From Gemmatimonadota bacterium (GTDB lineage Bacteria > Gemmatimonadota > Gemmatimonadetes > Gemmatimonadales > GWC2-71-9): a DNA stretch of 64,000 nt. Location of the stretch: contig JBDTNH010000003.1 of the NCBI GenBank assembly GCA_039933845.1, positions 2,888-66,887 of the forward strand, in the 5' to 3' direction. Made by a program: the position numbers and the translations under genes. Below, piece after piece: positions 63 through 56,181 of this stretch. The notes under the pieces were generated by a model that did no database searches, was not told the origin of the DNA, and saw nothing but the letters and a program-made list of their open reading frames with translations. How positions within the stretch are numbered: position 1 is the first letter of the stretch; each line of letters starts with the position of its first letter.

Positions 63-122
63 AACGAGAAACGAGAGGCGAGAAGCGAGAAGCGAGAAAC
101 GAGAGGCGAGAAGCGAGAAGCG
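63..122 (+). repeat. GAGAAGC/GAGAAAC heptamer tandem array
   Basis: About 8 units: aacgagaaacgagaggcgagaagcgagaagcgagaaacgagaggcgagaagcgagaagcg. Confidence 0.95.
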
Positions 123-228
123 TCATCCCGAGCATAGGCGGCCATGCCGCCGAAGTCGAGGGATCTGCACTTGATGCGCGGAGGTGCAGATCCCTCCACG
201 CGCGCCTTCGGCGCTTGGTCGGGATGAC
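122..228. repeat. Palindromic REP-like element, family A (cruciform)
   Basis: GTCATCCCGA(122-131)/TCGGGATGAC(219-228); GAGGGATCTGCAC(158-170)/GTGCAGATCCCTC(184-196); two side hairpins; half copy at 6841-6886. Confidence 0.9.
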
Positions 229-244
229 TCCCGTCGTTCACGAA

Positions 245-293
245 TCTCGCGTCTCGCGTCTCGCGTCTCGCTTCTCGCTTCTCGTGTCTCGCC
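245..293 (-). repeat. Heptamer tandem array
   Basis: TCTCGCG/TCTCGCT units directly after the stop of the minus-strand MscS gene. Confidence 0.9.
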
Positions 294-1169
294 CTACGGC
301 TGATAAAACCGCGTCGTCGGATACGCCAACTCGATCCGGTCATTCGCCGCGAACGCCAGCAACAGCTCCTCCCAGATCTTCTCCGCACTTGAGCGCCGCT
401 GATCGGGTCGGCAGCGGTAGCGCATCGTCAAGACCACGCCACTGTCTGCCACGCTCGTGATCACGCCTGGATCCCCTTCGAGCCACACGGCGACATGGTG
501 GCCGCCCCCGGGTGGGGGCGGGCGCATCGTCTTGTCGCGTGCCTGCAGCGTCTCACGCTTGATGATCTCCTGCAGCAACTGCTTCGCCAGCTGCCAGTCG
601 CTCTCGAACGTCACGGTCGTCGCGAGTTCGTTCCAGAGCAGCCCTGAGGCCGTGGAGTAGTTGGCCTGCGCCTTCGTGAATACCAGCCCGTTCGGGAGAT
701 GGATCACCCGGCCCGTGTGCTGATCCGCGTTGACCCAGTTGCCGATCTCGAGAATCGTGAACTGGAACAGTCGGACATCGGTCACGTCGCCGAGGTACTG
801 CTCGATCTGGATGCGGTCGCCGATCCGGAATGGGCGGCGCCAGAGAATGAAGAGCCAGCCGGCGAGGTTGGTGAGTGGCTGATTGAGTGCAATCGCGAGC
901 CCGGCTGTGACAATGCCGAAGAAGGCGCCGACCTGTGCGAGGCCGTCAGACCAGGCGCGTGCCGTGAGCAGCAGGCCGGTGACCACCAGGATGTAGGTGA
1001 TCACCTTCCGGATCCGGAATCGGATATTGGCGTCGTCCACTTGGGGCACCGCGAACCGGAAGAGCACCCAGCGGACGAACATCAACCCCAGGACCACCGC
1101 GATCGTCTCGGCGACGCGACCGCGCAGCACGGGGTCGAGACTGCTGATCCGTTCCCAGAGGTCGGTCAC
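294..1169 (-). CDS. Mechanosensitive ion channel, MscS family
   Basis: TM helices followed by RPFRIGDRIQI...GDVTDVRLFQFTI...HLPN; IELAYPT C-terminus. Confidence 0.9.
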   Translation of the reverse strand: MTDLWERISSLDPVLRGRVAETIAVVLGLMFVRWVLFRFAVPQVDDANIRFRIRKVITYILVVTGLLLTARAWSDGLAQVGAFFGIVTAGLAIALNQPLTNLAGWLFILWRRPFRIGDRIQIEQYLGDVTDVRLFQFTILEIGNWVNADQHTGRVIHLPNGLVFTKAQANYSTASGLLWNELATTVTFESDWQLAKQLLQEIIKRETLQARDKTMRPPPPGGGHHVAVWLEGDPGVITSVADSGVVLTMRYRCRPDQRRSSAEKIWEELLLAFAANDRIELAYPTTRFYQP

Positions 1170-2852: not shown

Positions 2853-4103
2853 GTGACGGTGTTCGACCTCATCGCCGCACTGACCACAATCGCCGCTGTC
2901 CTTGCGTGGATCAACTACCGCTTCGTCAAGTTGCCGATGACCATCGGCCTGATGGTGCTCTCGCTGGTCAGCTCGATCCTGATCGTCATCGCCGGCCGTC
3001 TCGGTGTGATGCCGATCGACGGGCTCACCAAGTTCGTGCAGGCGATCAACTTCGACGACACGGTCCTCAACGGCATGCTTGGTGCCCTCCTGTTCGCGGG
3101 CGCACTGCATCTCGACAGCGCCAAGTTGATGAAGTACCGCGGCCTGATCCTGACGCTTGCCACGCTCAGCGTCCTGATGACCACGGCCGTGGTCGGCATC
3201 GGCGGCTGGTATCTCTTCACCGCGCTCGGCCTCACCATTCCGCTCTCGTGGATGCTGGTCTTCGGGGCCCTGATCGCACCCACCGATCCGATCGCGGTCG
3301 GCGCGATCCTCCGGCGCGTCGGTGTACCCAAGGAACTCGAGACCACGATCACCGGCGAGTCGCTCTTCAACGACGGCGTCGGCGTCGTGCTGTTCATCCT
3401 GCTGATCGAACTGCTTGGCGGCGAAGCGATCACCGCCGGCGTGGTCGCCAAACTCATCGCCGTCGAGGTGGTCGGCGGCCTGGCCTACGGCGCAGTCCTG
3501 GGCTATGTCGTCTTCCGGATGCTCCGCGCGGTCGACAACTACTCGGTGGAAATCCTGCTCACGCTTGCCCTGGTCACCGGCGGCTACGCATTTGCGCATG
3601 TGTTCCATGTCTCGGGGCCGCTCGCGATGGTGGTCGCCGGATTGATCATCGGCACACGCGGTCGACAGGACGCGATGTCCGAGACCACGCGGCATCGACT
3701 CGATCAGTTCTGGGAACTGGTCGACGAATTCCTGAATGCCGTCCTGTTCGTGTTGATCGGGCTCGAGGTCGTGATCCTCGACGTGAGCGACAAGGTGCCG
3801 ATCGCGGCGGTGCTCGCGATTCCGCTGGTGCTGGTGGCCCGCTACATCTCCGTGGTGATCCCGGTATCGGTGTTGCCGAGCGGACGGAGCCTGCCGCGTG
3901 GCGCGGCGGCGATTCTCACCTGGAGTGGTCTCCGGGGCGGCATCTCGGTGGCGCTCGCGCTGTCGCTGCCCGCGAGTCTCTACCGTGACAAGCTGATCGC
4001 GATCACCTATGTGATCGTCTGCTTCTCGATCATCGTGCAGGGGCTGACGGTGGGGAAGGTGACGGCGAGGATCTTGGCGAGAAGCGAGAAGCGAGAAGCG
4101 TGA
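2853..4103 (+). CDS. nhaP: Na+/H+ antiporter, CPA1 (NhaP) family
   Basis: APTDPIAV, GESLFNDG and GLRGGISVALA motifs; multi-TM. Confidence 0.92.
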   Translation: MTVFDLIAALTTIAAVLAWINYRFVKLPMTIGLMVLSLVSSILIVIAGRLGVMPIDGLTKFVQAINFDDTVLNGMLGALLFAGALHLDSAKLMKYRGLILTLATLSVLMTTAVVGIGGWYLFTALGLTIPLSWMLVFGALIAPTDPIAVGAILRRVGVPKELETTITGESLFNDGVGVVLFILLIELLGGEAITAGVVAKLIAVEVVGGLAYGAVLGYVVFRMLRAVDNYSVEILLTLALVTGGYAFAHVFHVSGPLAMVVAGLIIGTRGRQDAMSETTRHRLDQFWELVDEFLNAVLFVLIGLEVVILDVSDKVPIAAVLAIPLVLVARYISVVIPVSVLPSGRSLPRGAAAILTWSGLRGGISVALALSLPASLYRDKLIAITYVIVCFSIIVQGLTVGKVTARILARSEKREA

Positions 4104-4116
4104 CGCGAGAAGCGAG
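4078..4116 (+). repeat. Heptamer tandem array overlapping nhaP stop
   Basis: cgagaagcgagaagcgagaagcgtgacgcgagaagcgag. Confidence 0.9.
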
Positions 4117-4152
4117 GCCGAGCCGCGGCTGTCAGGTCGCGGTTTGGTGCGC
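4117..4152 (+). repeat. REP-like hairpin, family B
   Basis: GCCGAGCCGCGGCTGTCAGGTCGCGGTTTGGTGCGC. Confidence 0.8.
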
Positions 4153-18491: not shown

Positions 18492-19946
18492 ATGCCCACC
18501 ACCAAGCGCTCCTTCCTCTCGGCCCTCACCTGCCCCACCATGGGTTGGTACGAACAACACGCCGGCGGCGGCACACCAGCCGTCGGCCTGCAGTGGCGGT
18601 TCTTCGAGGGCAACCTGGTGCAGCGCCTGGCGCGCGAATGGCTGGGCGAGGGCACACTATTGCCGTCGGGCCAAACCGCAATGGCGCTCGAGCACAGTCG
18701 TGCCGCCCTCGACGACCCAACCAACACTCTTCTCTTCGAGGCCTCGTTCGCGGCCGATGGCGCGGTGGCGCGCGCCGACGCCCTCCGTCGCACCGCCGAC
18801 GGCTGGGAGTTGATCGAGATCAAGGCCGGCAGCAGTCGCGACGATACACCGCTCAAGCCCGACCACATCGACGATGTCGCCTATACGTGGGCCGTGCTGA
18901 CGGCCGCCGGCGTGCCGCTCACCGCCGCGTCGCTGGTGATGATCAATGCCGACCATGTCGAGGGGAGCGGCAGCGAACCGCTCACCATTCGCGACGCGAC
19001 GGCAGAGATCACCGAACGCGCCGCACTCTTCCGCGACAACCTCGCCGACGTCGCGCAGCAACTCGCCGGTGATCGTCCCGCGCCGACCCTGATCTACGAC
19101 TGCCGCCACTGCGATCACTTCGGTGTCGACTGCATGGGGGTCGGGATCCCCGATCCGCTCTTCGACCTGCCGGGCCTCCGCGTGCAACGCTGGGACAAGC
19201 TGATCTCATTCGGCGAGCGGATCTCCGAGCTGCCCGTCGACGCCGACCTGACCGACAACCAGGCCGCGTATGCCGCCGTGCTGAGGTCCGGCACCCCCGC
19301 CATCGACAGCGACGTCCTGAAACATCTCGACGACATCGCCTACCCGATCCACTACCTCGACTTCGAGGCGATCCAGCCCGCGCTGCCGTGGTTTGCCGGC
19401 ACCTCACCGTACCAGAAGCATCCGTTCCAGTACTCACTCCACGTGCGGCCCGCGGCCAATACACCACTCGAGCACCACGAGTACCTCGCACTCGCCCTCG
19501 GCGACTGGCGCCGCGAGTTCGCCGAGTCGCTGCTCACCGCGCTCGGCGAGCGCGGATCGATCCTCGTTTACTCGAGCTACGAGTCACAGGTCCTGAACCA
19601 GTTGGCCGCGTGGTTTCCCGACCTCGAGTCGCGCATCGACGCAGTGCGGAAGCGACTGTTCGACCTGGAGAAGGTCGTCAAGAAGGGCTACCTGCACCCC
19701 GCCTTTCGCGGCAAGAGCTCGATCAAGAAGGTGCTGCCAGTCGTCGCACCAGACTTGTCGTACGATGGACTCGATGTCGCCGGTGGCGAGGATGCGATGG
19801 CGGTGTTCGGGTTCATGTATCTGGGCGAGTACCCCACCCCGGAGCATGCGCGCCACCGCGCCGCGCTGCTCGAGTACTGCAAGCTCGACACGGCGGCGAT
19901 GGTGCGGGTGCACGAGGCGCTTGTAGGCGTGAAGCGAGAGGCGTGA
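18492..19946 (+). CDS. DUF2779 protein (PD-(D/E)XK-like N-terminus plus RNase H-like C-terminus)
   Basis: ARADAL...LIEIK; CRHC...C; YLDFE, PFQYSLH, SIKKVLP, YCKLDT. Confidence 0.85.
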   Translation: MPTTKRSFLSALTCPTMGWYEQHAGGGTPAVGLQWRFFEGNLVQRLAREWLGEGTLLPSGQTAMALEHSRAALDDPTNTLLFEASFAADGAVARADALRRTADGWELIEIKAGSSRDDTPLKPDHIDDVAYTWAVLTAAGVPLTAASLVMINADHVEGSGSEPLTIRDATAEITERAALFRDNLADVAQQLAGDRPAPTLIYDCRHCDHFGVDCMGVGIPDPLFDLPGLRVQRWDKLISFGERISELPVDADLTDNQAAYAAVLRSGTPAIDSDVLKHLDDIAYPIHYLDFEAIQPALPWFAGTSPYQKHPFQYSLHVRPAANTPLEHHEYLALALGDWRREFAESLLTALGERGSILVYSSYESQVLNQLAAWFPDLESRIDAVRKRLFDLEKVVKKGYLHPAFRGKSSIKKVLPVVAPDLSYDGLDVAGGEDAMAVFGFMYLGEYPTPEHARHRAALLEYCKLDTAAMVRVHEALVGVKREA

Positions 19947-19990
19947 AGCGAGAAGCGAGGGGTGCTCACTTCTCACTTCTCGCACCTCGC
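19928..19990. repeat. Inverted pair of degenerate heptamer arrays
   Basis: GTGAAGC/GAGAAGC run overlapping the stop, then CTCACTT/CTCGCAC run. Confidence 0.75.
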
Positions 19991-20020
19991 GTTATCGTTG
20001 ACCTTCCATCCGGAGGTCCC

Positions 20021-20890
20021 ATGCCTCTCCAGCGTCCCATCAAGTGGTTCGGTATCGCTCTCGGCGTGCTCCTGCTGTTGGTCGTCGCCGCAGGCACGGT
20101 ATTCGGCCTGATCGGGCGTTCGCGCCTCAAGGGCACTCCCGTTTTTCCGCCCGACCTCGCCCAGGCACCGACGGACTCGACGACTCTCGCCGAAGGCGAA
20201 CGCCTCGTCACGATCTTCGGATGCCGAGGGTGCCATGGACCCGACCTCGGTGGACAGCTGGTGGTCGACATGCCGCTCGGACGATTCGTCGCCCCGAACC
20301 TCACCAGCGGTGCCGGTGGCGTGGGCGACAGCCTCCAGCCTGCCGACTGGAACCGCGCCATCCGCTTCGGGATCCGGCGCGACTCGACCCATCTCGCGCC
20401 GTTCATGCCGTTCGAATTGTTCAACCAGATCAGCGATGCCGACGCCAGCGCCATGATCGCCTACCTGCGGCAGGCTCCCGCCGTCGACCACGTCATCGAG
20501 CCGACCCACGTCCGACTCCTGGGCTACATCGTACTCGGGGCGAGCTCCCGCGAGTCGATGCTCCCCGCGCTCGGCCGCCCATCCGCCACCTCACCGACGC
20601 CAGGCACGATAGAACAGGGTGCCTACATTGCCGCCATCGTCTGCTCCGAGTGTCACGGTGAGCGACTGACCGGCGGCCAACATCCGGCGCCCGACGCGCC
20701 ACCGGGTCCAAGCTTGATTCACTATGGGAATTGGCCAGTTGACAGCCTCGAGCGCGTCGTGCGCTCGGGCGTCGGACCCGGCAATCGGGCGCTCAACCAT
20801 TGGATGCCGAGCAAAGGACAGCTGGATCGTTTGAGCGACGAGGAACTCGTCGCGCTCCACGCGTACATTCGTTCGCTGCGGCCAACCTGA
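20021..20890 (+). CDS. Di-heme c-type cytochrome
   Basis: CRGCH and CSECH; N-terminal TM; GGAGG RBS. Confidence 0.88.
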   Translation: MPLQRPIKWFGIALGVLLLLVVAAGTVFGLIGRSRLKGTPVFPPDLAQAPTDSTTLAEGERLVTIFGCRGCHGPDLGGQLVVDMPLGRFVAPNLTSGAGGVGDSLQPADWNRAIRFGIRRDSTHLAPFMPFELFNQISDADASAMIAYLRQAPAVDHVIEPTHVRLLGYIVLGASSRESMLPALGRPSATSPTPGTIEQGAYIAAIVCSECHGERLTGGQHPAPDAPPGPSLIHYGNWPVDSLERVVRSGVGPGNRALNHWMPSKGQLDRLSDEELVALHAYIRSLRPT

Positions 20891-20930: not shown

Positions 20931-21032
20931 CTCGTTTCTCATTTCTCGTTTCTCGCTTCTCGCTTCTCGCTTCTCGCTTCTCGCTTCTCGCTTCTCGCTT
21001 CTCGTTTCTCGTTTCTCGCTTCTCGCTTCTCA
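20929..21032 (-). repeat. Heptamer tandem array (~14 units)
   Basis: TCTCGCT/TCTCGTT units. Confidence 0.95.
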
Positions 21033-23426: not shown

Positions 23427-24802
23427 GGTGTCGCCTTCGGATTGGCCCAGCCACCGACATCACTCGCCAGGATCTCTGCGGCATCGGGGCCCCAGCTCCC
23501 GACCTCATACTGGTGCACCGGTGTGGCATCGCCGAGCACCGGTTCGACGATGGACCAGGCCGCCTCGACGGCATCCTGTCGTGCGAAGAGTGTTTGGTCA
23601 CCGTCCATGGCCTCGCCGAGGAGTCGTTCGTAGGCACTCATCTCATCGCAGTCGGACCGGTTGAGGAGGACCAGTTCGGTCGGCACGCCTCGCATCGAGT
23701 CGCCGGGCTCCTTGATGAGTACTCCCATGGCGATGCGCAGGTCCGGATTGACGCGAAGGTGCAGATGGTTCCCGGTCCCGGGCGCGAGCGTGGTGAGTGG
23801 TGGTCGCTTGAACTCGACCACCACTTCGGTTGCGGTCACTGGCATATCCTTGCCGGCGCGGATCAGGAATGGCACGCCGTCCCAGCGCCACGAGTCGACG
23901 GTCAGCCGGAGTGCGGCGAAGGTCTCCACCGTGGAATCCTTCGCGACACCCGCCTCGTCGCGATAGCCGGCGAACTGACCGCGGATCACATCTTCCGGAG
24001 CCAACGGCCGGATCTGCCGGAACACCTTGACCAGTTCGTCGCGGATCGCCTCGTTGTAGGTGGTCGCTGGTGGTTCCATCGCCACGAAGCCGATGATCTG
24101 CATCAGGTGATTCTGGATCACGTCACGGATCGCACCGGCCTCCTCGTAGAAGCTGCCGCGTCCGTCCACTCCGAACGATTCGGCCATGGTGATCTGGACG
24201 CTCTCGATGTAGTTGCGGTTCCAGATCGGCTCGAGGAAGGTGTTGGCGAACCGGAACACCAGAAGATTTTGCACCGCCTCCTTGCCGAGGTAGTGGTCGA
24301 TCCGGAAGACCGCGCGTTCGTCGAAGACCGTGTGAATCGTGTCACTCAACGCCTTGGCCGATGCGAGGTCGCGCCCGAACGGCTTCTCGACGATCACGCG
24401 GGCATCGTCGGCCGAGCCCGAGGCGCCGAGATGATCAACCACGACCGGGAAGAGACTGGGTGGAATCGCGAGATAGTGGATTGGGCGCTTGGCGTCGGCG
24501 AGTGCTTCCTTCAGCCGATCGAAGGTGCTGCGCTCGTTGTAGTCGCCGCCGACGTAGCGGAGCAGGTCACAGAGTTTCGCGCATGCGGCCTCGTCGACGC
24601 CCTCGTCGCTCGCTTCGAGCGACTCGCGGGCGCGATCGCGCAGCTTGTCGAGCGACCAATCCTGGCGGGCCACGCCGATGATCGGCACATCAAGGTGGCC
24701 GTGGCGGATCATCGCCTGGAGTGCGGGAAAGATCTTCTTGAAGGCCAAGTCGCCGGTGGCACCAAAGAAGACGAAAGCATCGGACCGTGCAGGGTCGGTC
24801 AT
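23423..24802 (-). CDS. zwf: Glucose-6-phosphate dehydrogenase
   Basis: [28 protein letters not shown]. Confidence 0.96.
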
Positions 24803-27207: not shown

Positions 27208-27267
27208 TGCGGCGACTTTCTCATCCGTGCAACACAACAGGATTGGGTCGCGGATGCAACTGGAGTA

Positions 27268-34861: not shown

Positions 34862-34929
34862 AGATAGGGTCGAGAACGGGAACGAGCCCCCACTGAACGG
34901 TTTGAGGCTAGATTTGGCTCTTCCTTCAT

Positions 34930-35043
34930 CGTTTCTCGTTTCTCGTTTCTCGCTTCTCGCTTCTCGCTTCTCGTTTCTCGCTTCTCGTTTCTCGTTTCTC
35001 GCTTCTCGCTTCTCGCTTCTCGCTTCTCGCCTTCTCGCTTTCT
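34930..35043 (-). repeat. Heptamer tandem array (~16 units)
   Basis: Mixed TCTCGTT/TCTCGCT units ending at the GGAG RBS. Confidence 0.95.
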
Positions 35044-35052
35044 GGAGTCACC

Positions 35053-36096: not shown

Positions 36097-36182
36097 CCGC
36101 GGAGGTCACGCCGCGGGATGTCCGCGCATTCGCAAGATCCAGCCGCGGCCGTCAGGCCGCGGGATGCCCGCGCATTCGCAAG
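36095..36182 (+). repeat. Tandem pair of family-B-like hairpins (46-bp period)
   Basis: AGCCGCGG-NN-GTCA-NG-CCGCGG-GATG(T/C)CCGCGCATTCGCAAG x2. Confidence 0.85.
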
Positions 36183-36297
36183 CAATTCTGATTTCCGCCA
36201 CGACCCCGCACCTGACGGAATTGGCTCCCGCGGCGTAGCTTCTGCGACCAACCTGGCTTCATCCTTCGGTTCGTCGTCAATCAGGAGCGTCTGCGTG

Positions 36298-39200
36298 GTG
36301 CGCCACCCAACTCCCGCCGCCCTTTCCATGGTCTTGGCCTTGGCGCTGCTCCCCGGCCTGCTCACGGCCCAGGGCGCCGCTCCCCGGCTCTTCACCGACC
36401 CAGATGTGAGCGCCGATCAGATCTGTTTCAGTTACGCGGGCGACATCTGGCTGGTGCCCCGGTCCGGCGGCGATGCCCATCGGCTGACGGCCACCCCGGG
36501 AAATGAAGGTCGCTGCCGGTTCTCACCAGATGGCCGCTTGGTCGGCTACACCTCTGGTCGCGAGAACAACGCCGATGTCTATGTCGTCGGGGTCGACGGT
36601 GGCACCCCGACCAGGTTGACGTGGCATCCCGCGACCGACATGGTGAGCGACTGGACGCCCGATGGCAGACTGCTTTTCGCGTCGCTACGCGACGGAGTGA
36701 CGCCGGGCGGGATTCCGTTCCAGTTCTATACCCAGGGTGTGCAGGAGGTTGCGGCGACACCGCTCCGCCTTCAGGGTGCGCTCGATGCCTCATATTCGAG
36801 CGACGGGTCACGATTGGCGTACACCGAATTCATGGCAGCGAACGATATCTGGAAGCGATATCGCGGCGGTCGCACCCCCGGGATCTGGCTCGCGACGTTG
36901 TCGAACGCCGCGATTGAAAAGGTACCGCACGCTGGTTCCAGCGACGGCTACCCGATGTGGGTCGGCGACACGGTCTTCTTCCTCTCCGATCGCGACGGGC
37001 CGACGACGCTCTACGGCTACAACCTGAGCACCAAGTCGGTCGGACGGCGAATCGACAACACGAGCCTCGACATCAAGTCGGCCCAGGCGGGCCCCGGAGC
37101 GATCATCTACGACCAGTTTGGCTCGATCCAGCTCTATGACATCGCCAGCGGCCGCACCTCACCTGTGGACATCCGGATCGACGGCGAACTCACGGCCACA
37201 CTTCCCAATTGGGCCGGGGTCGGCAGCCAACTCGGCTCTGCAGCACTCTCTCCCACGGGTCAGCGCGCCGCATTCGAGGCGCACGGCGAGATCATCACGG
37301 TGCCCGCCGACAAGGGTGATCCGCGCAACATCACCAACACCACGGGAACGATGGAACGGTCGCCGGCGTGGTCACCCGATGGCCAGACAGTCGCCTACTT
37401 CACCGAGGCCGGTGGTCAGTACCAGCTCGCACTGCAGTCGCAGGACGGCAGGGGCACGCCGCGCAGGATTTCGCTTGGTGGTGGCGACAACTTCGACTAC
37501 ACGCCGACCTGGTCGCCCGACGCCAAGTCGATCGCCTTCACCAATTCGCGAGGCGAGATCTGGTTGGTCGACCTGGCATCGGGGAAGCTGACCAAGGTCG
37601 ATGCCAACCCGTTCGGTTCGTTCGGCCAGGCGGGAACATCGCTGTCCTGGTCGAAGAATTCGCGCTGGTTGGCATACTCGCGCGCGATCAGCAATCGATT
37701 GCCGGCGGTGTTCGTCTTCGACCGCACCGATGGCAGGATCCACCAGATGACCGACGGGATGAGCAGTGCCTCGAATCCGGCGTTCGATGCGAGTGGGAAG
37801 TACCTCTACTTCCTGGCCAGCACCGACGCCGGACCGGCCACCGACTTCAGCATGACGACGTTCGACCACCCGGTGACGTCGACGCTCTATGCGATCGTGC
37901 TCGCGCGGGATTCTGCCTCCCCGATGGCGCCCGAGAGCGACGAGGAACCGGCCAGGCCCGACACCACGACGGCAAAGGCAAAGGCAAACGCGAAGCCACC
38001 CACACCGGTCGACAGCACGGCGGTGACGGTCGACTTCGATGGGATCGACCAGCGTGCGGTCGCGTTGCCGGTCGACCCGAAGAACTTTGTGGCCATCGTC
38101 GCCGGCAAGGCGGGCACAGTGCTCCTGGCGGAGGCGCCACTGGTGCCGGTCGATCTGCAGGACGGCGGGGAGGGCGTGACGCTGCACTCGTTCGACCTGA
38201 AGGAGCGCAAGACGACCGAGTTGCTCGGCGACGTGACCAGCTTCGACGTGTCGCGCGATGGTGGCAAGCTGCTCTACCACAAGGACAACAGCTGGGCAAT
38301 CGCGGATCTGACCAAGCCCATCAAGCCGGGCGATGGTGCGCTCGCGACGGCCGCGATTCAGGTGAAGACCGACCCGCGTGCCGAGTGGGCGCAGATGTAC
38401 CATGAGGCCTTTCGATTCCAGCGGGCGTTCTTCTACGATCCCGACTTTCACGGCCTTGACCTCGACGCCACCGAGCGCTTCTACGAACGGTATCTCCCCG
38501 GGCTCGGCAGCCGTGCCGATCTCGATCAACTGTTCAGGGAGGCATTCGGCAATCTGACCGTGGGCCACCTGTTCGTGAGTGGCCCGCCGGGAGGCGGCGA
38601 TGGCACCCCGGCCAATGGCGTGCTGGGGGCCGACTACACCGCGAGCAACGGCCATTGGCGCTTCGCGAAGATTTACGCCGGCGAGAGCTGGAATCCGCAA
38701 CTCTCAGCGCCGCTGACTCAGCCTGGTGTCAACGTGATGGCGGGCGAATACCTGTTGGCGGTGAACGGCGCGTCGCTCACGACGGCCACCAATGTCAACG
38801 CCGCACTGGCCGGCACCGCCGGCAAGCAGGTGATGTTGCGCGTGGGTCCGAATGCCGATGGCACCGATGCGCGTGACGTCACGGTAGTGCCGCTCGCGAG
38901 TGAGGGGATGCTGCGTCACCTGGCGTGGATCGACCACAATCGCCGTGTGGTGGATTCACTCTCGGGTGGCAAGTTGGCGTATCTCTACATTCCCAACACC
39001 GCCAACGAGGGATACACTCGGTTCAACCGCTACTTCTTCGCCCAGCAGGACAAGCAGGGTGCAGTCGTCGACGAGCGCTACAACCAAGGTGGCAACATTG
39101 CCGACTACATGGTCTACTACCTGATCAAGAATGCGCCGTTCAATTATGCGACCCAACGGTACGGCGAGGACGTGCCGATCCCGGCGGGAGCGATCTACGG

Positions 39201-39597
39201 CCCGAAGGCGATGTTGATCAACGAGTGGGCAGGCTCCGGCGGCGACGAGCTGCCATGGCTGTTCCGGCGCTTCAAGGCAGGCCCGCTGATCGGCACCCGC
39301 ACCTGGGGTGGACTGGTCGGGATCGGCGGCTACCCCAGCCTGATGGATGGCGGCTCGGTGACGGCTCCACGCGTCTCGCTCTGGTCGTACGAGGGGAAGT
39401 ACGAGGTGGAAAATCAGGGGGTCGCGCCCGACATTGAAGTGACCGCCGACCCGGCGGCATGGCGACAGGGTCGCGATGTGCAACTCGAGCATGCGGTCAA
39501 GGTGGTCATGGATTCGCTGGCACAGCACCCATTCGTCGCGCCATCGCGACCGCCGTTTCCGACGTGGGCGAAGGGGCGTACGCCGGGAGAGAAGTGA
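36298..39597 (+). CDS. Tricorn protease, S41 family
   Basis: Propellers, PDZ, VVDERYNQGG, AGSGGD, IGTRTWGG, GVAPDIEV; start at 36298 or 36328. Confidence 0.93.
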   Translation: MRHPTPAALSMVLALALLPGLLTAQGAAPRLFTDPDVSADQICFSYAGDIWLVPRSGGDAHRLTATPGNEGRCRFSPDGRLVGYTSGRENNADVYVVGVDGGTPTRLTWHPATDMVSDWTPDGRLLFASLRDGVTPGGIPFQFYTQGVQEVAATPLRLQGALDASYSSDGSRLAYTEFMAANDIWKRYRGGRTPGIWLATLSNAAIEKVPHAGSSDGYPMWVGDTVFFLSDRDGPTTLYGYNLSTKSVGRRIDNTSLDIKSAQAGPGAIIYDQFGSIQLYDIASGRTSPVDIRIDGELTATLPNWAGVGSQLGSAALSPTGQRAAFEAHGEIITVPADKGDPRNITNTTGTMERSPAWSPDGQTVAYFTEAGGQYQLALQSQDGRGTPRRISLGGGDNFDYTPTWSPDAKSIAFTNSRGEIWLVDLASGKLTKVDANPFGSFGQAGTSLSWSKNSRWLAYSRAISNRLPAVFVFDRTDGRIHQMTDGMSSASNPAFDASGKYLYFLASTDAGPATDFSMTTFDHPVTSTLYAIVLARDSASPMAPESDEEPARPDTTTAKAKANAKPPTPVDSTAVTVDFDGIDQRAVALPVDPKNFVAIVAGKAGTVLLAEAPLVPVDLQDGGEGVTLHSFDLKERKTTELLGDVTSFDVSRDGGKLLYHKDNSWAIADLTKPIKPGDGALATAAIQVKTDPRAEWAQMYHEAFRFQRAFFYDPDFHGLDLDATERFYERYLPGLGSRADLDQLFREAFGNLTVGHLFVSGPPGGGDGTPANGVLGADYTASNGHWRFAKIYAGESWNPQLSAPLTQPGVNVMAGEYLLAVNGASLTTATNVNAALAGTAGKQVMLRVGPNADGTDARDVTVVPLASEGMLRHLAWIDHNRRVVDSLSGGKLAYLYIPNTANEGYTRFNRYFFAQQDKQGAVVDERYNQGGNIADYMVYYLIKNAPFNYATQRYGEDVPIPAGAIYGPKAMLINEWAGSGGDELPWLFRRFKAGPLIGTRTWGGLVGIGGYPSLMDGGSVTAPRVSLWSYEGKYEVENQGVAPDIEVTADPAAWRQGRDVQLEHAVKVVMDSLAQHPFVAPSRPPFPTWAKGRTPGEK

Positions 39598-39665
39598 GAC
39601 GTGAGAAGTGAGAGGTGAGAGCCATTCCTCAGCTGTCGTTTCTCGTTTCTCGTTTCTCGTTTTCT
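39588..39665. repeat. Inverted pair of heptamer arrays
   Basis: GAGAAGT-type run 39588-39621; TTTCTCG run 39637-39665. Confidence 0.85.
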
Positions 39666-42892: not shown

Positions 42893-42893
<1 letters not shown>

Positions 42894-46090: not shown

Positions 46091-46186
46091 CGAGAAGCGA
46101 GAAGCGTGATGCGAGAGACGGCCGAGCCGCGGCGGTCACGCCGCGGTTTGGTTCGCAACGCACGGATCTCGTTTCTCGTTTTCTCA
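46090..46186. repeat. Heptamer array + family B hairpin (46121-46156) + inverted heptamer array
   Basis: GAGAAGC units, then GCCGAGCCGCGGCGGTCACGCCGCGGTTTGGTTCGC, then TCTCGTT units. Confidence 0.9.
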
Positions 46187-47742: not shown

Positions 47743-47838
47743 TGGCCGCGGCTCGGCCGCTTCTCGCTTCTCGCTTCTCGCTTCTCGCTTCTCGTTTCTC
47801 GCTTCTCGCTTCTCGTTTCTCGCTTCTCGCTTCTCGTT
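47721..47838 (-). repeat. Family B hairpin (47721-47760) fused to heptamer array (47759-47838)
   Basis: Minus strand (GAGAAGC)n-GGCCGAGCCGCGGCCATCAGGCCGTGGTGTGGTTCGCG. Confidence 0.92.
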
Positions 47839-49626
47839 TTACCAGCTCCCCCCCCCACCTCCTCCACCACCGCCGCCGACGGAGCCGCCACCACCGCCGC
47901 CGCTACTCGACCCCGGTGACGAACCCATCGTCCGGGTCGCTGCCGACTGGAACCCGTTGAGCCCATTCGAGAAGTTGGTCATGTTGAACTGACCAGGTGT
48001 CCCACCCACGTACCACGCCGGTGGGTTCGAGGCGAGGATCGGCCCGAACTGTTTCACCCAGATGTCGCTCACCCGAAGCGCTACCGCATACGGCAGCAGC
48101 TCCTCGAACAACTGCGTGGTCCGTTCCGGCCCCTGGCTCATCTCCAGTTCCAGCTTCTCTGCCCGACGGACATACTCCTCGAGTCCGCGCAGTTGCTCCC
48201 ACTGCTTGGCGCCCTTGAGGGTACGCGCGGGCATCGCGCGGGCGAAGGCCAGCACGATGATGCCGGAGAGCACACCGCCCGCAATCAGGACACCGTTCCC
48301 GAGCGCCGACCCGATCGCCACCCCGACGGCAAGGATCACCACCCCGAGCACGCCGTACGCCAGTCGTGTCTTCTGCGGGCTGCTGGTGAAGAGTCCCTCT
48401 GCCACCACTGCCTCGTAGAGCGCGCTGTGAATCTTCGGAACCTGGGTGTAGAACTCGTTGTTGAGGTCGCTCATCTTCCGCGTGAGTCCGCCCTCGAACA
48501 CGCCGTCGAGCACCAGTGTCTCGTAGCTCGCGAGCCCCTCCTCGCCCGCGGCGTTAATCCGCTCCAGTGCCCAGTCGGTCTGGGTGATTCCCAGCTTCTT
48601 GAGCAGCTTGCCAGCGAAACCCTCCTGATCGAGTCCGCCGAGCAGGCCGTCGGGGGCCACTTCGCTGATCCGCACGAATCCTCGCACGGTGAGGTCGAGC
48701 AGCGTCGCGACGATGTCGTTCATGTCTGACGACTGATCCCACAGTGTACCGGCGGGCCCGGGCCGCAGGTCCTTCGGCACCTTCCAGTATGGCACCACGC
48801 TGCCCTGCTCCGGCTCGCGACCACGGGTCCGCCACAGCCAGGTCATGAAGCCGAGCATGACGATCGGAACGCCCAACGGCCAGACGATGCCGAGCGATCG
48901 CATCATCTGCTCGGTCTCGGTGGGGGCGGTGATGATCCCCTTGGGGAACGAGGCGACCATCGTCAGCCCTTCACCTGGATCGAGTCGACCACTGGTGAAC
49001 GTCCAGCCGCCCACGTCGTTGACGGTTGCCGTGCAGCGCGAGTTGTCCTTGCTATCGGACCAGCCGGCGTAGCACCACGCGTCCCATCCGACGCTCGCTG
49101 CTCCCGTCCCATCGATCGACACCGTGGCGCGAGCCTTGAGGATCGGCACCGGCCATTGGGTTCCCGTCACCTGCCAATAGAGCTCATCGTGATCCTCGAA
49201 GAATCCGAGCCCGCGTTCGAGGCGATAGTGGATGATGTAGCGCTGCATGCCGGTCACCGTGCGGTCGGCATCGCCGATGCGGAGCCGTGCATCGGTGCCG
49301 CGCGTGACCTGAAGTCCGAGGTCCGCTCCATTGCCATCTGTCACCGAGACCCGATCGATGTCGACCTTCACCCGACCCGCACCGATCGGGATGCCAGCAT
49401 CGAGGATCTTGCGGTAGGTGATCGGGATGTCCCGGTAGATGCCATGCTTCTGGAGCGGACCGAAATCCACATCGATCTGTTCGGTGACGTCGATGGTCCG
49501 GTCAGCGTTGATGCGATAGGCTGCGTCGAACGACGTGATGGTCCACCCGGTGTCCTGGCTGTCCTGCGCGACGAGTGGCGCGGCGCTTAGGGTCAGGAGG
49601 GCGAGCCAGCGTGTCACGCGATTCAT
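47839..49626 (-). CDS. DUF2207 membrane protein
   Basis: HGIYRDIP, DELYW, LLPYAVAL; Gly-rich C-terminus ending GGGSW. Confidence 0.9.
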   Translation of the reverse strand: MNRVTRWLALLTLSAAPLVAQDSQDTGWTITSFDAAYRINADRTIDVTEQIDVDFGPLQKHGIYRDIPITYRKILDAGIPIGAGRVKVDIDRVSVTDGNGADLGLQVTRGTDARLRIGDADRTVTGMQRYIIHYRLERGLGFFEDHDELYWQVTGTQWPVPILKARATVSIDGTGAASVGWDAWCYAGWSDSKDNSRCTATVNDVGGWTFTSGRLDPGEGLTMVASFPKGIITAPTETEQMMRSLGIVWPLGVPIVMLGFMTWLWRTRGREPEQGSVVPYWKVPKDLRPGPAGTLWDQSSDMNDIVATLLDLTVRGFVRISEVAPDGLLGGLDQEGFAGKLLKKLGITQTDWALERINAAGEEGLASYETLVLDGVFEGGLTRKMSDLNNEFYTQVPKIHSALYEAVVAEGLFTSSPQKTRLAYGVLGVVILAVGVAIGSALGNGVLIAGGVLSGIIVLAFARAMPARTLKGAKQWEQLRGLEEYVRRAEKLELEMSQGPERTTQLFEELLPYAVALRVSDIWVKQFGPILASNPPAWYVGGTPGQFNMTNFSNGLNGFQSAATRTMGSSPGSSSGGGGGGSVGGGGGGGGGGSW

Positions 49627-50192: not shown

Positions 50193-50252
50193 TGAGAATC
50201 GCTCCCTCGCCGCCGTTACGCCACCTTCCCGGACTTTGAGCTAGAATGAAGG

Positions 50253-50666
50253 ATGCAAGATGCGCCCGTCCTCCTCTACGATGGCAGCTGCGGCTTCTGC
50301 CAGGCCAGTGTCCAGTTCGTGCTCAAGCACGAGCACCGGCATACCCTCCAGTTCGCTCCACTCCGGGGCCAGACGGGACAGGCGATCCTGGCGCGCCACC
50401 CGGAACTGGTCGCCATGGACACCGTACTCTGGGCCGAGCACCCCGGGACACCGAACGAGCGGATATACCACCGCAGCGCCGCCACGCTCGCCGTGCTCCG
50501 CTACCTCGGTGGCGGGTGGCGCCTGCTCACCGTGTTCTGGCTCGTGCCGCGACCGCTCCGCGACGGGATCTATCGGTTCGTCGCCCGGCACCGGCACCGG
50601 ATCCCGGTGGCCGACGATGCCTGCGCATTGCCCAGCCCGCTCGAACGAGAGAGATTTCTGGATTAG
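50253..50666 (+). CDS. DCC1-like thiol-disulfide oxidoreductase (DUF393)
   Basis: YDGSCGFC; RDGIYRFVARHR; TAGAAT 5 nt before ATG. Confidence 0.9.
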   Translation: MQDAPVLLYDGSCGFCQASVQFVLKHEHRHTLQFAPLRGQTGQAILARHPELVAMDTVLWAEHPGTPNERIYHRSAATLAVLRYLGGGWRLLTVFWLVPRPLRDGIYRFVARHRHRIPVADDACALPSPLERERFLD

Positions 50667-50670
50667 CGTC

Positions 50671-50771
50671 GCCTCGTTTCTCGCTTCTCGTTTCTCGCTT
50701 CTCGTTTCTCGCTTTCTCGTTTCTCGCTTCTCGCTTCTCGCTTCTCGCTTCTCGTTTCTCGCTTTCTCTCT
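50671..50771 (-). repeat. Heptamer tandem array (~14 units)
   Basis: TCTCGCT/TCTCGTT units with occasional 8-mers. Confidence 0.95.
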
Positions 50772-50782
50772 GTGGGGTTCGC

Positions 50783-51268
50783 TTGGCCAGTTCGACACCG
50801 TATCGCATGCTGCCCGATGACACGCGCTTGATGCTCGTCACCCAGGACCTCAAGGCAAATTCGGGATCTCGCGCCTCGTACATCATGCGGATCGTCGCGA
50901 AGGGCGGCGGATTCCGGCCGGAAACGCTCCGCAAATTGAAGCCCGAGCAACTGGCCCGCGACATCGTCCGCCGGAAGCTCGAGACGCTGCAGGACGAGGT
51001 CGGCTACCTGCAGCTCCTGTACGTGGAGCTCCAGCCGGAAATCCAGATCGCGTTTTGTGACGCAGCGGGGGTGGCGCACGAGAACGGCTCGATCCCCGAG
51101 GAGTTGCCGATGCCACTCGCGAGCGAGGCAGACGTGCGTGCTGCGGCCGAATCACTCGTCTCCACCTTTGGCGATCGAGGCCGACACTACCTCATGACAG
51201 TCGCCACCTACAATGCCGAGGCGTGGCCCGGATTGGCGGAGTGGCTGGAAGCGAAGGCGGCCGGGTAG
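50783..51268 (+). CDS. Hypothetical protein
   Basis: Globular-looking ORF; start at TTG 50783 or ATG 50807. Confidence 0.7.
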   Translation: MASSTPYRMLPDDTRLMLVTQDLKANSGSRASYIMRIVAKGGGFRPETLRKLKPEQLARDIVRRKLETLQDEVGYLQLLYVELQPEIQIAFCDAAGVAHENGSIPEELPMPLASEADVRAAAESLVSTFGDRGRHYLMTVATYNAEAWPGLAEWLEAKAAG

Positions 51269-54368: not shown

Positions 54369-54425
54369 CCGCACCAGCCGGGTAGATTTGGGTGTCGCAC
54401 CCACTTCTACCCGGAGCTTTCTCCC

Positions 54426-55193
54426 ATGCGCGCCACGCTCACGATTGCGCTCCTGTCAGCCCTCGTCCCCCTCGGCGTCCATGCACAGGCATCGCCGCTC
54501 CCGATCGGCACGCGGGGTCAGGGAAGCGTCGCCGAGTCGACCCCATCGCGCTACAGTTTTTCGCCCACCGGCACGGGGCTCCTCACGATCGCGGTGTCCA
54601 GCACGATTGATTTGGGCATCCGCGTCATGGATGTCGATGGTCAGGTGCTCCCGGGTGGCACAGGTGACATCGACTACGCCGGCAAGCCCGGACTGGAGTT
54701 CCTGAGCGTGCCACTCTCCGTGGTCGAGCCGGTGACCATCGAGGTGAGCAGCGTCGGTGGTGAGGCGGGTGCCTTCACCATCACCGCAGGATACATCACG
54801 GAACCGGCATTCCAGGTCCCAGCCGACCCGGATCGGCGCCCGTCCCTCGCCCTGCCGCTCACCGTCGGACAGAGTCACACCGACGCGCTTGACCCGAGCG
54901 GGGGTGACCGGTGGGACTGGTACACCATCACCGCCCAGGACGATGGCTCACTCGTCTTTGTCACGCGCACGGAGGGTGAAGGTGAGCCTGGTGACATCGC
55001 GCTCGAGCTCTACCTCGGCGATGACTTCAGTACACCCACCGCACAGGCCGATGACGACCTGCAGGAGGTGGCCACCAATGAGTCGGTCACCGTCATCGTC
55101 AAGAAGGGTGACAAGGTGTACCTCAAGGTGAGCTCGCTCTACGAAAGCGCCGACAGCTTCGCCTATCGTGTCAGCGTGGGTCGGATTCCGTGA
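54426..55193 (+). CDS. Secreted protein with PPC-like beta domains
   Basis: Signal peptide (VHA-Q); DRWDWYTI, DIALELY, ADDD. Confidence 0.65.
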   Translation: MRATLTIALLSALVPLGVHAQASPLPIGTRGQGSVAESTPSRYSFSPTGTGLLTIAVSSTIDLGIRVMDVDGQVLPGGTGDIDYAGKPGLEFLSVPLSVVEPVTIEVSSVGGEAGAFTITAGYITEPAFQVPADPDRRPSLALPLTVGQSHTDALDPSGGDRWDWYTITAQDDGSLVFVTRTEGEGEPGDIALELYLGDDFSTPTAQADDDLQEVATNESVTVIVKKGDKVYLKVSSLYESADSFAYRVSVGRIP

Positions 55194-56119
55194 ATGGCAG
55201 TATCGCGGCCGAGCCGCGGTCGTCAGGCCGCGGTTGGGTTCGCTGGCAGTGGAGCCTCGCCCTCTCGCTTGGCGCCGCACCCATTGCGGCGCAAGCACCC
55301 TTCACCGTCATGACGTTCAACATCCGGTACGGCACCGCCGATGACGGCGTGAATGCGTGGCCCAATCGGCGGGAGCACGTCATCAGCACCGTCCTGACGC
55401 ATGCGCCCGACGTGCTCGGCCTGCAGGAAGCACTCGACTTCCAGGTCGATGCACTCCGCGCCGCGCTCCCTCGACACGGACAGTTCGGCGTCGGGCGAGA
55501 CGATGGCAAGCGTGCGGGTGAATTCGCCCCACTGTTCGTCGACACCACACGGTTCCTGGTGCCGGAGAGTGGCACCACGTGGCTCTCCGACACGCCGGAT
55601 GTTCCGGGATCGATGACCTGGGGCAACACGCTGCCGCGGATCACCACGTGGGCGCTGATCGAGGATCGCAGGAGTGGCGACCGCACCTACGTCTTCAATC
55701 TGCATCTGGATCATCGTTCGCAGGAAAGCCGCGAACGATCGGTCGCGTTCGTTCTGGCGGAGTACCAGCGTCGCCGCACCGCGCTGATCGCACGGGAGGC
55801 ACAGCGCGCGGAATTCGGTGGGGCCGCCCCGTCACCACGATTGCTGCTGATGGGAGACTTCAACGCCGACGAGGCCAACCCTGCCTACGCCGTGGCGATC
55901 GACGGTGGCATGCTCGACGCGTATCGTGCCGTACACCCCGATGCCGACACCGTCACCACCTTCAACGACTTCAAGCCGACCATCGACCCGTCCGGCGGGA
56001 TGATCGACCACCTGTTGCTCCGCGGCGAGTGGCAGGTGCTCGACGCCGGGATCGATCGCACCCGATTCGGAGAGCTCTGGGCGAGTGATCACTTCGCGGT
56101 GTGGGCGGTGGTGGAGTAG
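55190..56119 (+). CDS. Endonuclease/exonuclease/phosphatase (EEP) family protein
   Basis: MTFNIR, LQE, NLHLDH, MGDFN, IDH, SDH. Confidence 0.9.
   Translation: MNGSIAAEPRSSGRGWVRWQWSLALSLGAAPIAAQAPFTVMTFNIRYGTADDGVNAWPNRREHVISTVLTHAPDVLGLQEALDFQVDALRAALPRHGQFGVGRDDGKRAGEFAPLFVDTTRFLVPESGTTWLSDTPDVPGSMTWGNTLPRITTWALIEDRRSGDRTYVFNLHLDHRSQESRERSVAFVLAEYQRRRTALIAREAQRAEFGGAAPSPRLLLMGDFNADEANPAYAVAIDGGMLDAYRAVHPDADTVTTFNDFKPTIDPSGGMIDHLLLRGEWQVLDAGIDRTRFGELWASDHFAVWAVVE
55205..55243 (+). repeat. Family B hairpin inside the EEP ORF
   Basis: GCGGCCGAGCCGCGGTCGTCAGGCCGCGGTTGGGTTCGC. Confidence 0.85.
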
Positions 56120-56120
56120 C

Positions 56121-56181
56121 ACGAGAAACGAGAAACGAGAAGCGAGACATCATCTCTCGCTTCTCGCTTCTCGCTTCTCGC
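56121..56181. repeat. Inverted pair of heptamer arrays between convergent genes
   Basis: GAGAAAC/GAGAAGC run then TCTCGCT run. Confidence 0.92.

Follow-up and report, generated by a model that had tools for sequence, protein, structure and literature searches.

Dispersed arrays of tandem heptanucleotides have been described by Rehm et al. (2015; PMC4692102) in Xanthomonas campestris and X. citri (unit GGGAATC) and in Nostoc/Anabaena PCC 7120 (unit GGGGA(C/T)T). According to the available text of that article, each Xanthomonas genome carries 183-186 arrays of 2-26 units, 89-93% of which are intergenic, and convergent array pairs occur in 70-75 cases. The arrays lie on average 28 nt from the 5′ neighbouring open reading frame (ORF) compared with 160 nt from the downstream ORF, irrespective of ORF orientation; those downstream of a gene are on the coding strand, including some that overlap the stop codon, and those upstream are on the non-coding one. 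The same loci are occupied in close relatives, with varying length and sequence, and none are found on plasmids. G-quadruplex formation was the property that the authors emphasised, and they did not settle on a function. Here we report arrays of another heptamer, GAGAARC (R is A or G), in a stretch of 64,000 nucleotides (the window) from a bacterium of the Gemmatimonadota (GenBank assembly GCA_039933845.1, contig JBDTNH010000003.1, positions 2,888 to 66,887). The explanation that we favour, with a probability of about 0.5, is that they are dispersed heptamer repeats which form the arms of intergenic palindromes and evolve by slippage, any function lying in hairpins at transcription-unit boundaries.

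In common with the Xanthomonas and Nostoc repeats, as far as the available text describes them, the arrays reported here are heterogeneous, dispersed and mostly intergenic tracts of a 7-nt unit, form convergent pairs, present a purine- or G-rich 5′ end to the ORF and overlap stop codons. In both cases conservation is highest at positions 1-4 of the unit (GGGA there, GAGA here), and the absence from Xanthomonas plasmids has a parallel in the absence of GAGAARC arrays from an accessory region of the window. Unlike the units of Xanthomonas and Nostoc, GAGAAGC has no G-run; the host phylum, Gemmatimonadota, is a different one and the arms here visibly bracket other palindromes. The density is 18 arrays in 64 kb, compared with about 186 per genome in Xanthomonas. 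The published architecture and polarity rule are already known for other heptamers, and the Gemmatimonadota arrays add another case, still unexplained. New here are a unit incapable of forming a G-quadruplex, the provisional finding of GAGAARC arrays in many phyla, and a reversed arm order in the Acidobacteriota, often with a T-run.

The short tandemly repeated repetitive (STRR) heptamers of cyanobacteria (Calothrix, Anabaena), as treated in the available text of PMC4692102, are likewise non-coding tandem heptamers at many loci, of unresolved origin. They differ in motif and in phylum, the host here not being a cyanobacterium. Arrays of TAACTGA have been reported from marine Beggiatoaceae, some Cyanobacteria and Bacteroidetes (MacGregor 2015; PMC4679880). 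Shared features are heptamers at many intergenic sites near gene boundaries, one unit in distant phyla and the lack of a known transfer mechanism. Unlike GAGAARC, TAACTGA is mostly found a few nt upstream of starts; the available text gives one indirect repeat among 170 sets and does not describe any link with 3′ ends. Mrazek et al. (2007), as cited in the available part of that article, found heptamers to be the most abundant long simple-sequence repeats in most genomes, an abundance that may reflect the about 7 nt interacting with the polymerase. Literature matches for doubled GAGAAGC or GAGAAAC strings were vertebrate only, none being bacterial, and the top 10 of 50 matches on tandem or intergenic heptamers did not mention Gemmatimonad- in any form. 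Among the matches listed for GGGAATC there was no follow-up on these repeats beyond Xanthomonas typing schemes that use such units as variable-number tandem repeats (VNTRs). A paper on triplexes (PMC4666352) concerns, in its available part, other motifs.

The window contains 97 exact copies of the heptamer GAGAARC, compared with an expectation of 13.24 ± 3.35 from 100 dinucleotide shuffles, none of which reached 97. An earlier note, made from the letters alone, had listed about 18 arrays; Tandem Repeats Finder and our own in-phase scan recovered a period-7 array at all 18 noted positions (Table 1), and the in-phase scan found no further GAGAARC array in the whole window. The 18 arrays consist of 2-14 units, sit in 12 of the 36 intergenic regions that are 20 nt or longer and account for 851 nt of an intergenic total of about 6834 nt; overlap with ORFs is limited to the ends of three ORFs. 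In a census whose unit definition tolerates up to two mismatches, and is to that extent biased towards the consensus, 59 of the 111 units are GAGAAGC and 28 are GAGAAAC. The first four positions (GAGA) are nearly invariant and positions 5-7 are variable, and all of the variants named in the earlier note are present in the arrays. GAGAAGC has no run of two or more G, such runs being confined to the minor variants GAGAGGC and GAGGGGC, so a reading in terms of G-quadruplexes or i-motifs is inapplicable. Each unit has three C and one G on its pyrimidine strand, and the arrays are free of stop codons in all frames of both strands. The GC content of the window is 63-67% throughout.

The position of the arrays relative to genes was read from an approximate gene map of our own construction, built from ORFs filtered by GC content at third codon positions (GC3), Pfam matches and direct reading of start codons. 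Read along the + strand, each of the 12 array-bearing spacers has (GAGAAGC)n at its left side, (GCTTCTC)n at its right side, or both. In 17 of the 18 arrays the purine strand turns its 5′ end to the adjoining gene, which upholds the fixed polarity claimed earlier. In the 12 arrays at 3′ ends the purine strand is without exception the sense strand of the adjoining gene. All 12 lie 0-7 nt from the stop codon or overlap it; a start within about 0-6 nt of the stop had been claimed, and the adjacency stands, with the gap extended to 7 nt and three of the stops falling within arrays. Stop codons are found inside a degenerate first unit (TAGGAAC at 59, GTAAAAC at 47836) or at T-bearing variants within the array, namely GTGACGC at 4100 (stop 4101-4103), GTGAAGC at 19943 (19944-19946) and the junction of GAGAAGT with GAG at 39595 (39595-39597). 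The array-encoded C-termini of the latter three ORFs end in ARSEKREA, VGVKREA and TPGEK, respectively. As the spacers are short and the arrays lack stop codons, ORFs terminate at the first unit or shortly ahead of it, or else at T-bearing variants within the array.

In the six arrays at 5′ ends the pyrimidine strand is the sense strand and lies 12-39 nt ahead of the start codon. That several of them end right before the ribosome-binding site, as previously stated, is correct for two only (27303 before AGGAG and 35040 before GGAG), the remaining four stopping 26-39 nt before the start. The sole breach of the polarity rule is the array at 50673-50768, which begins 6-9 nt past the stop of the + strand gene 50253-50666 and lies 38 nt upstream of the + strand gene 50807-51268. 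It had been called ambiguous (as the array at 50671); it follows the rule for the downstream gene and violates it for the upstream gene. Since the arrays are open in all frames, mechanically called ORFs run through them. This is the case for ORFs 19388..20890, 24799..27363, 33275..35047 and 50246..51268, four genes over-extended at their 5′ ends, with real starts at 20021, below 27268, at or below 34861 and at 50807. Three transcription units (27317-28525, 35053-39597 and 39702-46090) are flanked by arrays on both sides, pyrimidine-sense at the 5′ end and purine-sense at the 3′ end. A full-length transcript of such a unit would have complementary ends, which may just reflect the presence of pairs in successive spacers.

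Outside the accessory region arrays are found in 5/7 convergent, 5/14 same-direction and 2/6 divergent spacers. The accessory region itself (6.8-16.3 kb) had been described as free of arrays, and none of its nine spacers carries one, compared with 12/27 elsewhere (Fisher p = 0.016, on our rough gene map). Candidate defence genes are located there on the - strand at 7948-9942, 9986-10363 and 12930-13370; they comprise a Schlafen-type helicase that matches the PADLOC candidate defence family PDC-S41 (1.7e-272), a NUDIX protein that matches PDC-S07 (1.1e-27) and a MerR-type regulator. An array-free region with candidate defence genes fits an acquired island. At its right edge there is a 14-nt tandem repeat, ACGCAGGCGCCTAA, in about 5.7 copies (16193-16272).

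Convergent inverted pairs are present at six of the 12 loci (59/242, 19929/19965, 28529/28659, 39589/39636, 46092/46164 and 56123/56152). Because a purine-first palindrome is identical when read from either strand, it presents the purine arm to the gene on each side, as is seen for all six pairs. This adds to the earlier note that half of the loci are pairs, and that their fixed polarity is a matter of geometry. Four pairs were folded against shuffles and gave -34.6 to -62.5 kcal/mol (z -7.52, -3.38, -7.61 and -3.87), none of 200 shuffles folding as well; for the two long composite pairs the folding energies are about -156 and -100 kcal/mol. The arms of pair 6 make a hairpin by themselves (-38.3 kcal/mol, z -7.52). 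What the arms enclose is a conserved stem-loop, a palindromic core of type A or type B, or only a 7-nt loop (56151). The other six loci (4079, 20934, 27269, 34931, 47759 and 50673) hold single arrays, including the four longest (12-14 units), and these fold no better than shuffles (20934, z -0.28; 34931, z +2.47, that is, less structured).

Table 1 Heptamer arrays and enclosed or adjoining palindromes in the window.
Feature	Position	Strand	Context
Purine array, 9 units, left arm of pair 1	59..121	+	First unit TAGGAAC holds stop TAG 59-61 of ORF running off window start
Right arm of pair 1, 7 units, mostly GAGACGC	242..290	-	3 nt from stop 294-296 of - strand MscS-like gene
Single 3′ array, 5 units	4079..4113	+	Na+/H+ exchanger ORF ends inside, TGA of GTGACGC 4101-4103
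Left arm of pair 2, 4 units	19929..19956	+	ORF 18492..19946 ends at TGA within GTGAAGC
Right arm of pair 2, GAGAAGT-type units	19965..19985	-	35 nt upstream of ATG 20021
Single 3′ array, 14 units	20934..21031	-	7 nt past stop 21039-21041 of 6-phosphogluconolactonase gene; then conserved stem-loop
Single 5′ array, 5 units	27269..27303	-	5 nt before AGGAG, 13 nt before ATG 27317
Left arm of pair 3, 2 units	28529..28542	+	3 nt past stop 28523-28525
Right arm of pair 3, 10 units, 21-nt higher-order period	28659..28728	-	2 nt from stop 28731-28733 of tricorn-type protease gene
Single 5′ array, 14 exact-phase units and 2 with 1-nt insertions	34931..35040	-	2 nt before GGAG, 12 nt before ATG 35053
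Left arm of pair 4, units GAGAAGT/GAGACGT/GAGAGGT	39589..39620	+	ORF 36118..39597 ends at TGA across two units
Right arm of pair 4, GAGAAAC units, then TTTT	39636..39662	-	39 nt before GTG 39702
Left arm of pair 5	46092..46119	+	1 nt past stop 46088-46090; then conserved stem-loop
Right arm of pair 5, then TTTT	46164..46181	-	26 nt before ATG 46208
Single 3′ array, 11 units and degenerate GTAAAAC	47759..47842	-	Stop TAA 47839-47841 in GTAAAAC; then conserved stem-loop
Single array, about 13 units, 50-nt higher-order period	50673..50768	-	38 nt upstream of ATG 50807; sole breach of the polarity rule
Left arm of pair 6	56123..56150	+	3 nt past stop 56117-56119
Right arm of pair 6	56152..56183	-	Abuts stop TAA 56182-56184 of - strand gene; convergent-gene spacer
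Conserved stem-loop, GCCGAGCCGCGG-loop-CCGCGGTTTGGT	4116..4152	+	Directly after array 4079..4113
MITE-like palindromic core, type A (GTCATCCCGAGC...TCGGGATGAC)	122..228	.	Between arms of pair 1
MITE-like palindromic core, type B (GTCACGCTGAGCG...CGCTCAGCGTGAC)	28546..28647	.	Between arms of pair 3

The conserved stem-loop (GCCGAGCCGCGG-loop-CCGCGGTTKGGTTCGC) has seven copies in the window, each just past the 3′ end of a gene and oriented with that gene; the copies other than the one in Table 1 are near 20893-20928 (-), 33187-33222 (+), 46120-46155 (+), 47722-47758 (-), 55207-55242 (+) and 63616-63652 (-). A purine array directly precedes four of the seven. The stem is partly G-U paired and is for that reason more stable as sense RNA (-24.8 kcal/mol) than as antisense RNA (-9.0 kcal/mol), and the stem-loop therefore looks like an element that acts at the RNA level at 3′ ends. 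The motif occurs once in the at least 116 loci fetched from other genomes (see below) and seems to be specific to this genome. As a seed or general partner of the arrays the GCCGAGCCGYGG stem-loop was rejected, that single occurrence among the matches listed not being adjacent to an array.

The cores resemble MITEs (miniature inverted-repeat transposable elements) and form two families with GTCAYSCYGAGC ends. Copies are present in the window (122-228, 28546-28647 and 6842-6895) and in three of the fetched loci (L007, 2033-2152; L088, about 170-290; L104, about 390-450). Most copies seen, including two of the three in the window, are exactly between heptamer arms or directly beside them; the core at 6842-6895 occurs without arrays. 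A repetitive extragenic palindrome (REP) with 5′ GTAG, GTAGGGGCGCAACATGTTGCGCCCGTAC, has two copies in the window (52433-52460 and 52650-52677), both beside a gene at 51842-52357 (+) that resembles a REP-associated tyrosine transposase (RAYT; Pfam Y1_Tnp, 2e-06; NCBIfam REP_Tyr_transpos, NF047646, 55.2 bits against a cutoff of 80). The heptamer arrays in the window are not adjacent to this gene. The same palindrome lies between heptamer arms in a Gemmatimonadales locus (L080, 2050-2069). A general link between the RAYT and the arrays was rejected: its REP lies between arrays in this one locus of at least 116, and the window copies are only beside the gene. A 49-nt tandem duplication (52513-52610) separates the two window copies. 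The arrays resemble REPs, bacterial interspersed mosaic elements (BIMEs) and hairpin-forming REP doublets (REPINs) in being extragenic palindromes, often at 3′ ends and in convergent spacers, and in forming inverted doublets that fold into hairpins. Unlike the arrays, REPs are fixed units of 20-40 nt, and the RAYT-like gene here has its own REP, which is not the heptamer.

A scan of a genome collection (596 Gb) for three consecutive GAGAARC units returned at least 116 loci, 80 of them with 2-kb flanks; loci are given below by number (L), and all counts for them are counts among the matches listed. These include at least 14 loci from 10 Gemmatimonadota assemblies and about 30 loci from the Acidobacteriota; further matches are from the Bacteroidota, Planctomycetota, Vibrionaceae and neighbours, Chromatiales and others. 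Provisionally, GAGAARC arrays are thus found in many phyla. The 14 loci from Vibrionaceae and neighbours gave no mutual alignment of at least 300 nt and on this basis are not orthologous. The earlier argument, that one motif at many unrelated loci does not arise from local slippage alone, is strengthened by its recurrence at non-orthologous loci in 10 other Gemmatimonadota assemblies and several phyla. Some dispersal or shared constraint behind the recurrence of GAGAARC is needed.

Arm order is lineage-specific. Leaving out loci with too short a flank, purine-first pairs, pyrimidine-first pairs and arrays without a partner number 8, 0 and 6 in the Gemmatimonadota (14 loci), 3, 0 and 3 in the Planctomycetota (6), 1, 15 and 12 in the Acidobacteriota (28), 1, 1 and 15 in the Bacteroidota (17), 0, 0 and 11 in the Vibrionaceae and neighbours (11), and 5, 0 and 22 in other groups (27). 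The unit in the Acidobacteriota is mostly GAGAAAC (105/164 units). There, hairpins of the form (CGTTTCT)n-loop-(AGAAACG)n stand right after stop codons (L001, L004, L005, L020, L045, L057, L063, L085, L089, L112 and L116, around position 2000 or 300), with a run of at least four T after 7/12, and these pairs look like intrinsic terminators with stems built from heptamers.

Gene boundaries around the fetched loci were called by a heuristic (a crude ORF and GC3 caller) that is less accurate than the manual map. For 20 Gemmatimonadota arrays the nearer boundary was on the 5′ side of the purine strand (outer) in 17 and on the 3′ side (inner) in three; within 30 nt, 13 of the same arrays had an outer boundary only, none an inner boundary only, two had both and five neither. 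The 28 Acidobacteriota arrays gave 12 outer and 15 inner calls, with one uncalled. Arrays whose sense strand is the purine strand and which begin 1-4 nt past a stop codon were seen in Enterovibrio (L077), Vibrio (L039, L065), and metagenome-assembled genomes (MAGs) of the Pirellulaceae (L040) and the Bacteroidetes (L034); in the Enterovibrio locus a canonical terminator is found further downstream of the array.

The arrays have higher-order periods. Tandem Repeats Finder reports a 28-nt period with two perfect copies in array 65-122, a 21-nt period in array 28663-28731, a 50-nt period in array 50673-50768 and a 14-nt period in three others, which points to slippage or duplication of several units at a time and not to templated addition unit by unit. 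The closest relatives among the matches listed are Gemmatimonadales MAGs, and the host very probably belongs to that order as well. One (L088) is orthologous to window 1-583 (80% identity over 600 nt), with 63/65 and about 46/50 nt identical in the unique flanks and arrays at both sites. The left arm has five full units and a truncated sixth in L088 versus nine in the window; in the right arm, changes are block-wise (GCGTCTC x3 in the window versus GCTTCTC in L088, and GCTTCTC versus GTTTCTC), and the enclosed core is type B in L088 and type A in the window. The other (L016; 78% identity over 335 nt) has a full array pair right after the stop of a deoxyhypusine-synthase-like gene, where the window has the conserved stem-loop only, the position of the stop being the same. 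Arrays of differing length and unit at the same position are thus seen at one of the two orthologous loci. The alignment of orthologous regions named in the earlier note gave a mixed outcome, with altered arrays and core at one locus and a pair in place of the stem-loop at the other. Because of these two comparisons, the arrays would appear to be hypervariable, to persist or recur at the same boundaries, and to be able to occupy the place of a stem-loop.

Gradual changes of unit are visible along single arrays elsewhere. In Bryocella elongata (L023, 1924-2077) the unit drifts from TAGATGC to GAGATGC to GAGAAGC to TAGAAGC; in L037 (1980-2035) it drifts from TAGACGC to GAGAAGC, and in L104 (301-391 and about 455-480) from GAGAAGC to GAGGGGC. 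Judged from these sequences, a heptamer array can switch to another unit in place. Near the arrays in L104 there is also a second, unrelated heptamer (GGCCCAG x3).

On the explanation that we favour, the arrays would be lineage-specific, dispersed heptanucleotide simple-sequence repeats at the outer edges of intergenic regions. Their basic unit would be the convergent inverted pair 5′-(GAGAAGC)n...(GCTTCTC)n-3′, the arms of which would form the lower stem of an RNA hairpin or a DNA cruciform and enclose a variable spacer content (a terminator-like stem-loop in sense orientation, a MITE-like core, in one relative a REP, or no element at all). As suggested by the periods and the ortholog, each arm probably gains and loses units and switches unit type on its own, through replication slippage that involves one to seven units. 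An arm may shrink to two units, and the complete loss of an arm would account for the six single arrays. A function, if any, would be that of hairpins at transcription-unit boundaries, in termination, insulation or 3′-end protection, and the arrays may also serve as portable homology for the exchange of the enclosed core.

Several points weigh against this explanation. The single arrays keep their polarity without a partner, and geometry alone leaves half of the cases unexplained. A search for a partner arm within 250 nt (threshold score 11, null rate 2/295) found no remnant beside the six single arrays, the best scores being 10.5 and 7.5. The boundary heuristic, applied to 13 arrays of the window, gave nine outer and three inner calls with one uncalled; the inner calls fell on array 50673-50768 (both halves, called separately) and on the arm 39638-39658. 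A comparison of strands, in which sense RNA was the more stable at four of 10 loci and the less stable at six, is uninformative on a role at the RNA level. The pairs share with intrinsic terminators a stable, GC-containing hairpin directly after the stop codon, and they differ from them in that a T-run (at least four T within 14 nt) follows only 3/17 purine-first pairs of the Gemmatimonadota type and in that half of the window loci are single arrays which do not fold. A generic terminator scan gave 9, 5 and 5 sites versus 7.9, 7.1 and 8.5 in shuffles, with no enrichment; together with the generic promoter scan it showed no excess over shuffles in the window and did not flag the arrays. The enrichment across phyla is judged solely against our own estimate of about two exact chance matches in 596 Gb. 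Lastly, the explanation is silent on why this heptamer was used and on how it was seeded at many loci.

The polarity could instead be that of an oriented cis-acting code, which we regard as doubtful. An incoming polymerase would transcribe (GCUUCUC)n, a pad for Rho (a Rho utilisation, or rut, site) or for ribosomal protein S1 that insulates genes against antisense transcription and read-through; on transcripts leaving a gene there would be the inert purine strand, or else a GAG-N4 repeat that an RNA-binding protein recognises. Sites of the rut type are C-rich, G-poor, unstructured stretches of RNA of roughly at least 70-80 nt, and S1 favours pyrimidine-rich leaders. The four longest arrays (84-110 nt, three C and one G per unit, unstructured) have these sequence properties of rut sites, and the pyrimidine array is less structured than its own shuffles (z +2.47), although binding of Rho or S1 to these arrays, or termination by them, is at this stage a proposal. 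Such a code would explain why mirror symmetry about genes also holds for five of the six single arrays of the window (all except 50673-50768), why GAGA is near-invariant while positions 5-7 vary, as expected of a recognition motif, and why arrays in the Vibrionaceae and neighbours stand 1-2 nt past stops (L077, L039, L065) with a partner in 0/11 cases. It does not sit well with the two 5′ arrays that abut the Shine-Dalgarno sequence, where a gene's own mRNA would bear the Rho pad, nor with array 50673-50768, which places the pyrimidine strand right after a stop codon, nor with the Acidobacteriota, in which the arm order is reversed (15 pyrimidine-first pairs versus one). Arrays are also absent from 15/27 spacers outside the accessory region and from 24/36 in the window, and so are not needed at every gene. 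To our knowledge cyanobacteria lack Rho, and a Rho reading cannot then be the common explanation for a set of repeats that includes those of Nostoc. Xanthomonas and Nostoc units likewise put the C-rich strand on the incoming side, according to the available text of PMC4692102. A general polar boundary code, in which the incoming strand of whatever heptamer is a structure-free, C-rich, G-poor tract that recruits a termination or RNA-binding factor (Rho where present), is a broader idea that we consider distinctly unlikely.

It is also rather unlikely, in our estimate, that the inverted pair represents, or once represented, the terminal inverted repeat of a small non-autonomous mobile element, or the preferred landing site of several such elements, with copies spread by transposition or ectopic recombination and the arms then reshaped by slippage. 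The fixed arm order in each lineage resembles a frozen founder (8 versus 0 in the Gemmatimonadota, 3 versus 0 in the Planctomycetota, 15 versus 1 in the Acidobacteriota), and a composite of array and type A core is found at non-orthologous loci (window 59-290 and L007, 73% identity over 220 nt). Two of the three window copies of type A/B cores are exactly between arms, the core has been swapped at the orthologous site (L088), and the arrays are absent from the accessory region with its candidate defence genes, just as Xanthomonas arrays are absent from plasmids in the available text of PMC4692102. Against this, no target-site duplications were seen by eye at the outer junctions of the six pairs. 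The pairs have the inverted arms of a MITE, with no direct duplication and with varying length and content (stem-loop, two core types, REP or none). The cores have terminal inverted repeats of their own and also occur free of arrays (6842), so the arrays are not their ends. The sole transposase-like gene of the window is RAYT-like (55 bits, cutoff 80) and is flanked by a different repeat, and Rehm et al. report no association with mobile elements in the available part of their article (PMC4692102). One unit length and one motif at many loci would be accounted for by telomere-like templated addition, or by some other dedicated polymerase activity that places heptamers on broken or terminal DNA. 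We consider this very improbable: variant units are mixed in blocks with periods of 14, 21, 28 and 50 nt, the two arms of a pair carry different variants, and the arrays are internal to the chromosome, between conserved genes. The earlier note had raised such seeding, together with an accompanying reverse transcriptase or primase-polymerase. The internal position, heterogeneity and higher-order periods of the arrays, and the differences by blocks of units in L088, speak against the former, and neither enzyme was found among 52 ORFs scanned against Pfam in the 64-kb window. An artefact of assembly, or chance, has next to no probability. Short tandem repeats are prone to mis-assembly and the window is known from the assembly alone, but none of 100 shuffles reaches the observed count, the unique flanks are conserved on both sides, and the architecture recurs in 14 listed loci from 10 other Gemmatimonadota assemblies, including the ortholog of window 1-583.

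By Pfam match, the window encodes two tricorn-type proteases and three Ser/Thr kinases, and it also contains a glucose-6-phosphate dehydrogenase operon. Rfam at gathering thresholds gave no match and ARAGORN no tRNA in the window. At 51315-51719 (+) there is a gene for a 134-aa Lys/Ala-rich protein with 24-nt coding repeats, which has the look of histone H1 or AlgP and gave no Pfam or NCBIfam match; a GC-rich hairpin lies 3′ of it, at about 51739-51775.

The gene-boundary polarity of the Xanthomonas and Nostoc arrays has been unexplained since 2015 and is now seen in a third lineage. The rule is independent of G-quadruplex chemistry, because the GAGAAGC unit cannot form a G-quadruplex. The reversed arm order of the Acidobacteriota and the polar single arrays provide contrasts for testing the hairpin, Rho/S1 and mobile-element models. 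In practical terms, calls of gene starts and stops near the arrays need care, as ORF finders run through them, and the arrays would make good VNTR markers for Gemmatimonadota strains. If a boundary code were true, transcription units would be insulated by a hypermutable, self-renewing repeat, with outgoing transcripts carrying the inert purine strand, and the GAGAARC arrays after stop codons in the Gemmatimonadota, Planctomycetota, Vibrionaceae and Bacteroidota would reflect a shared reader and not chance or slippage.

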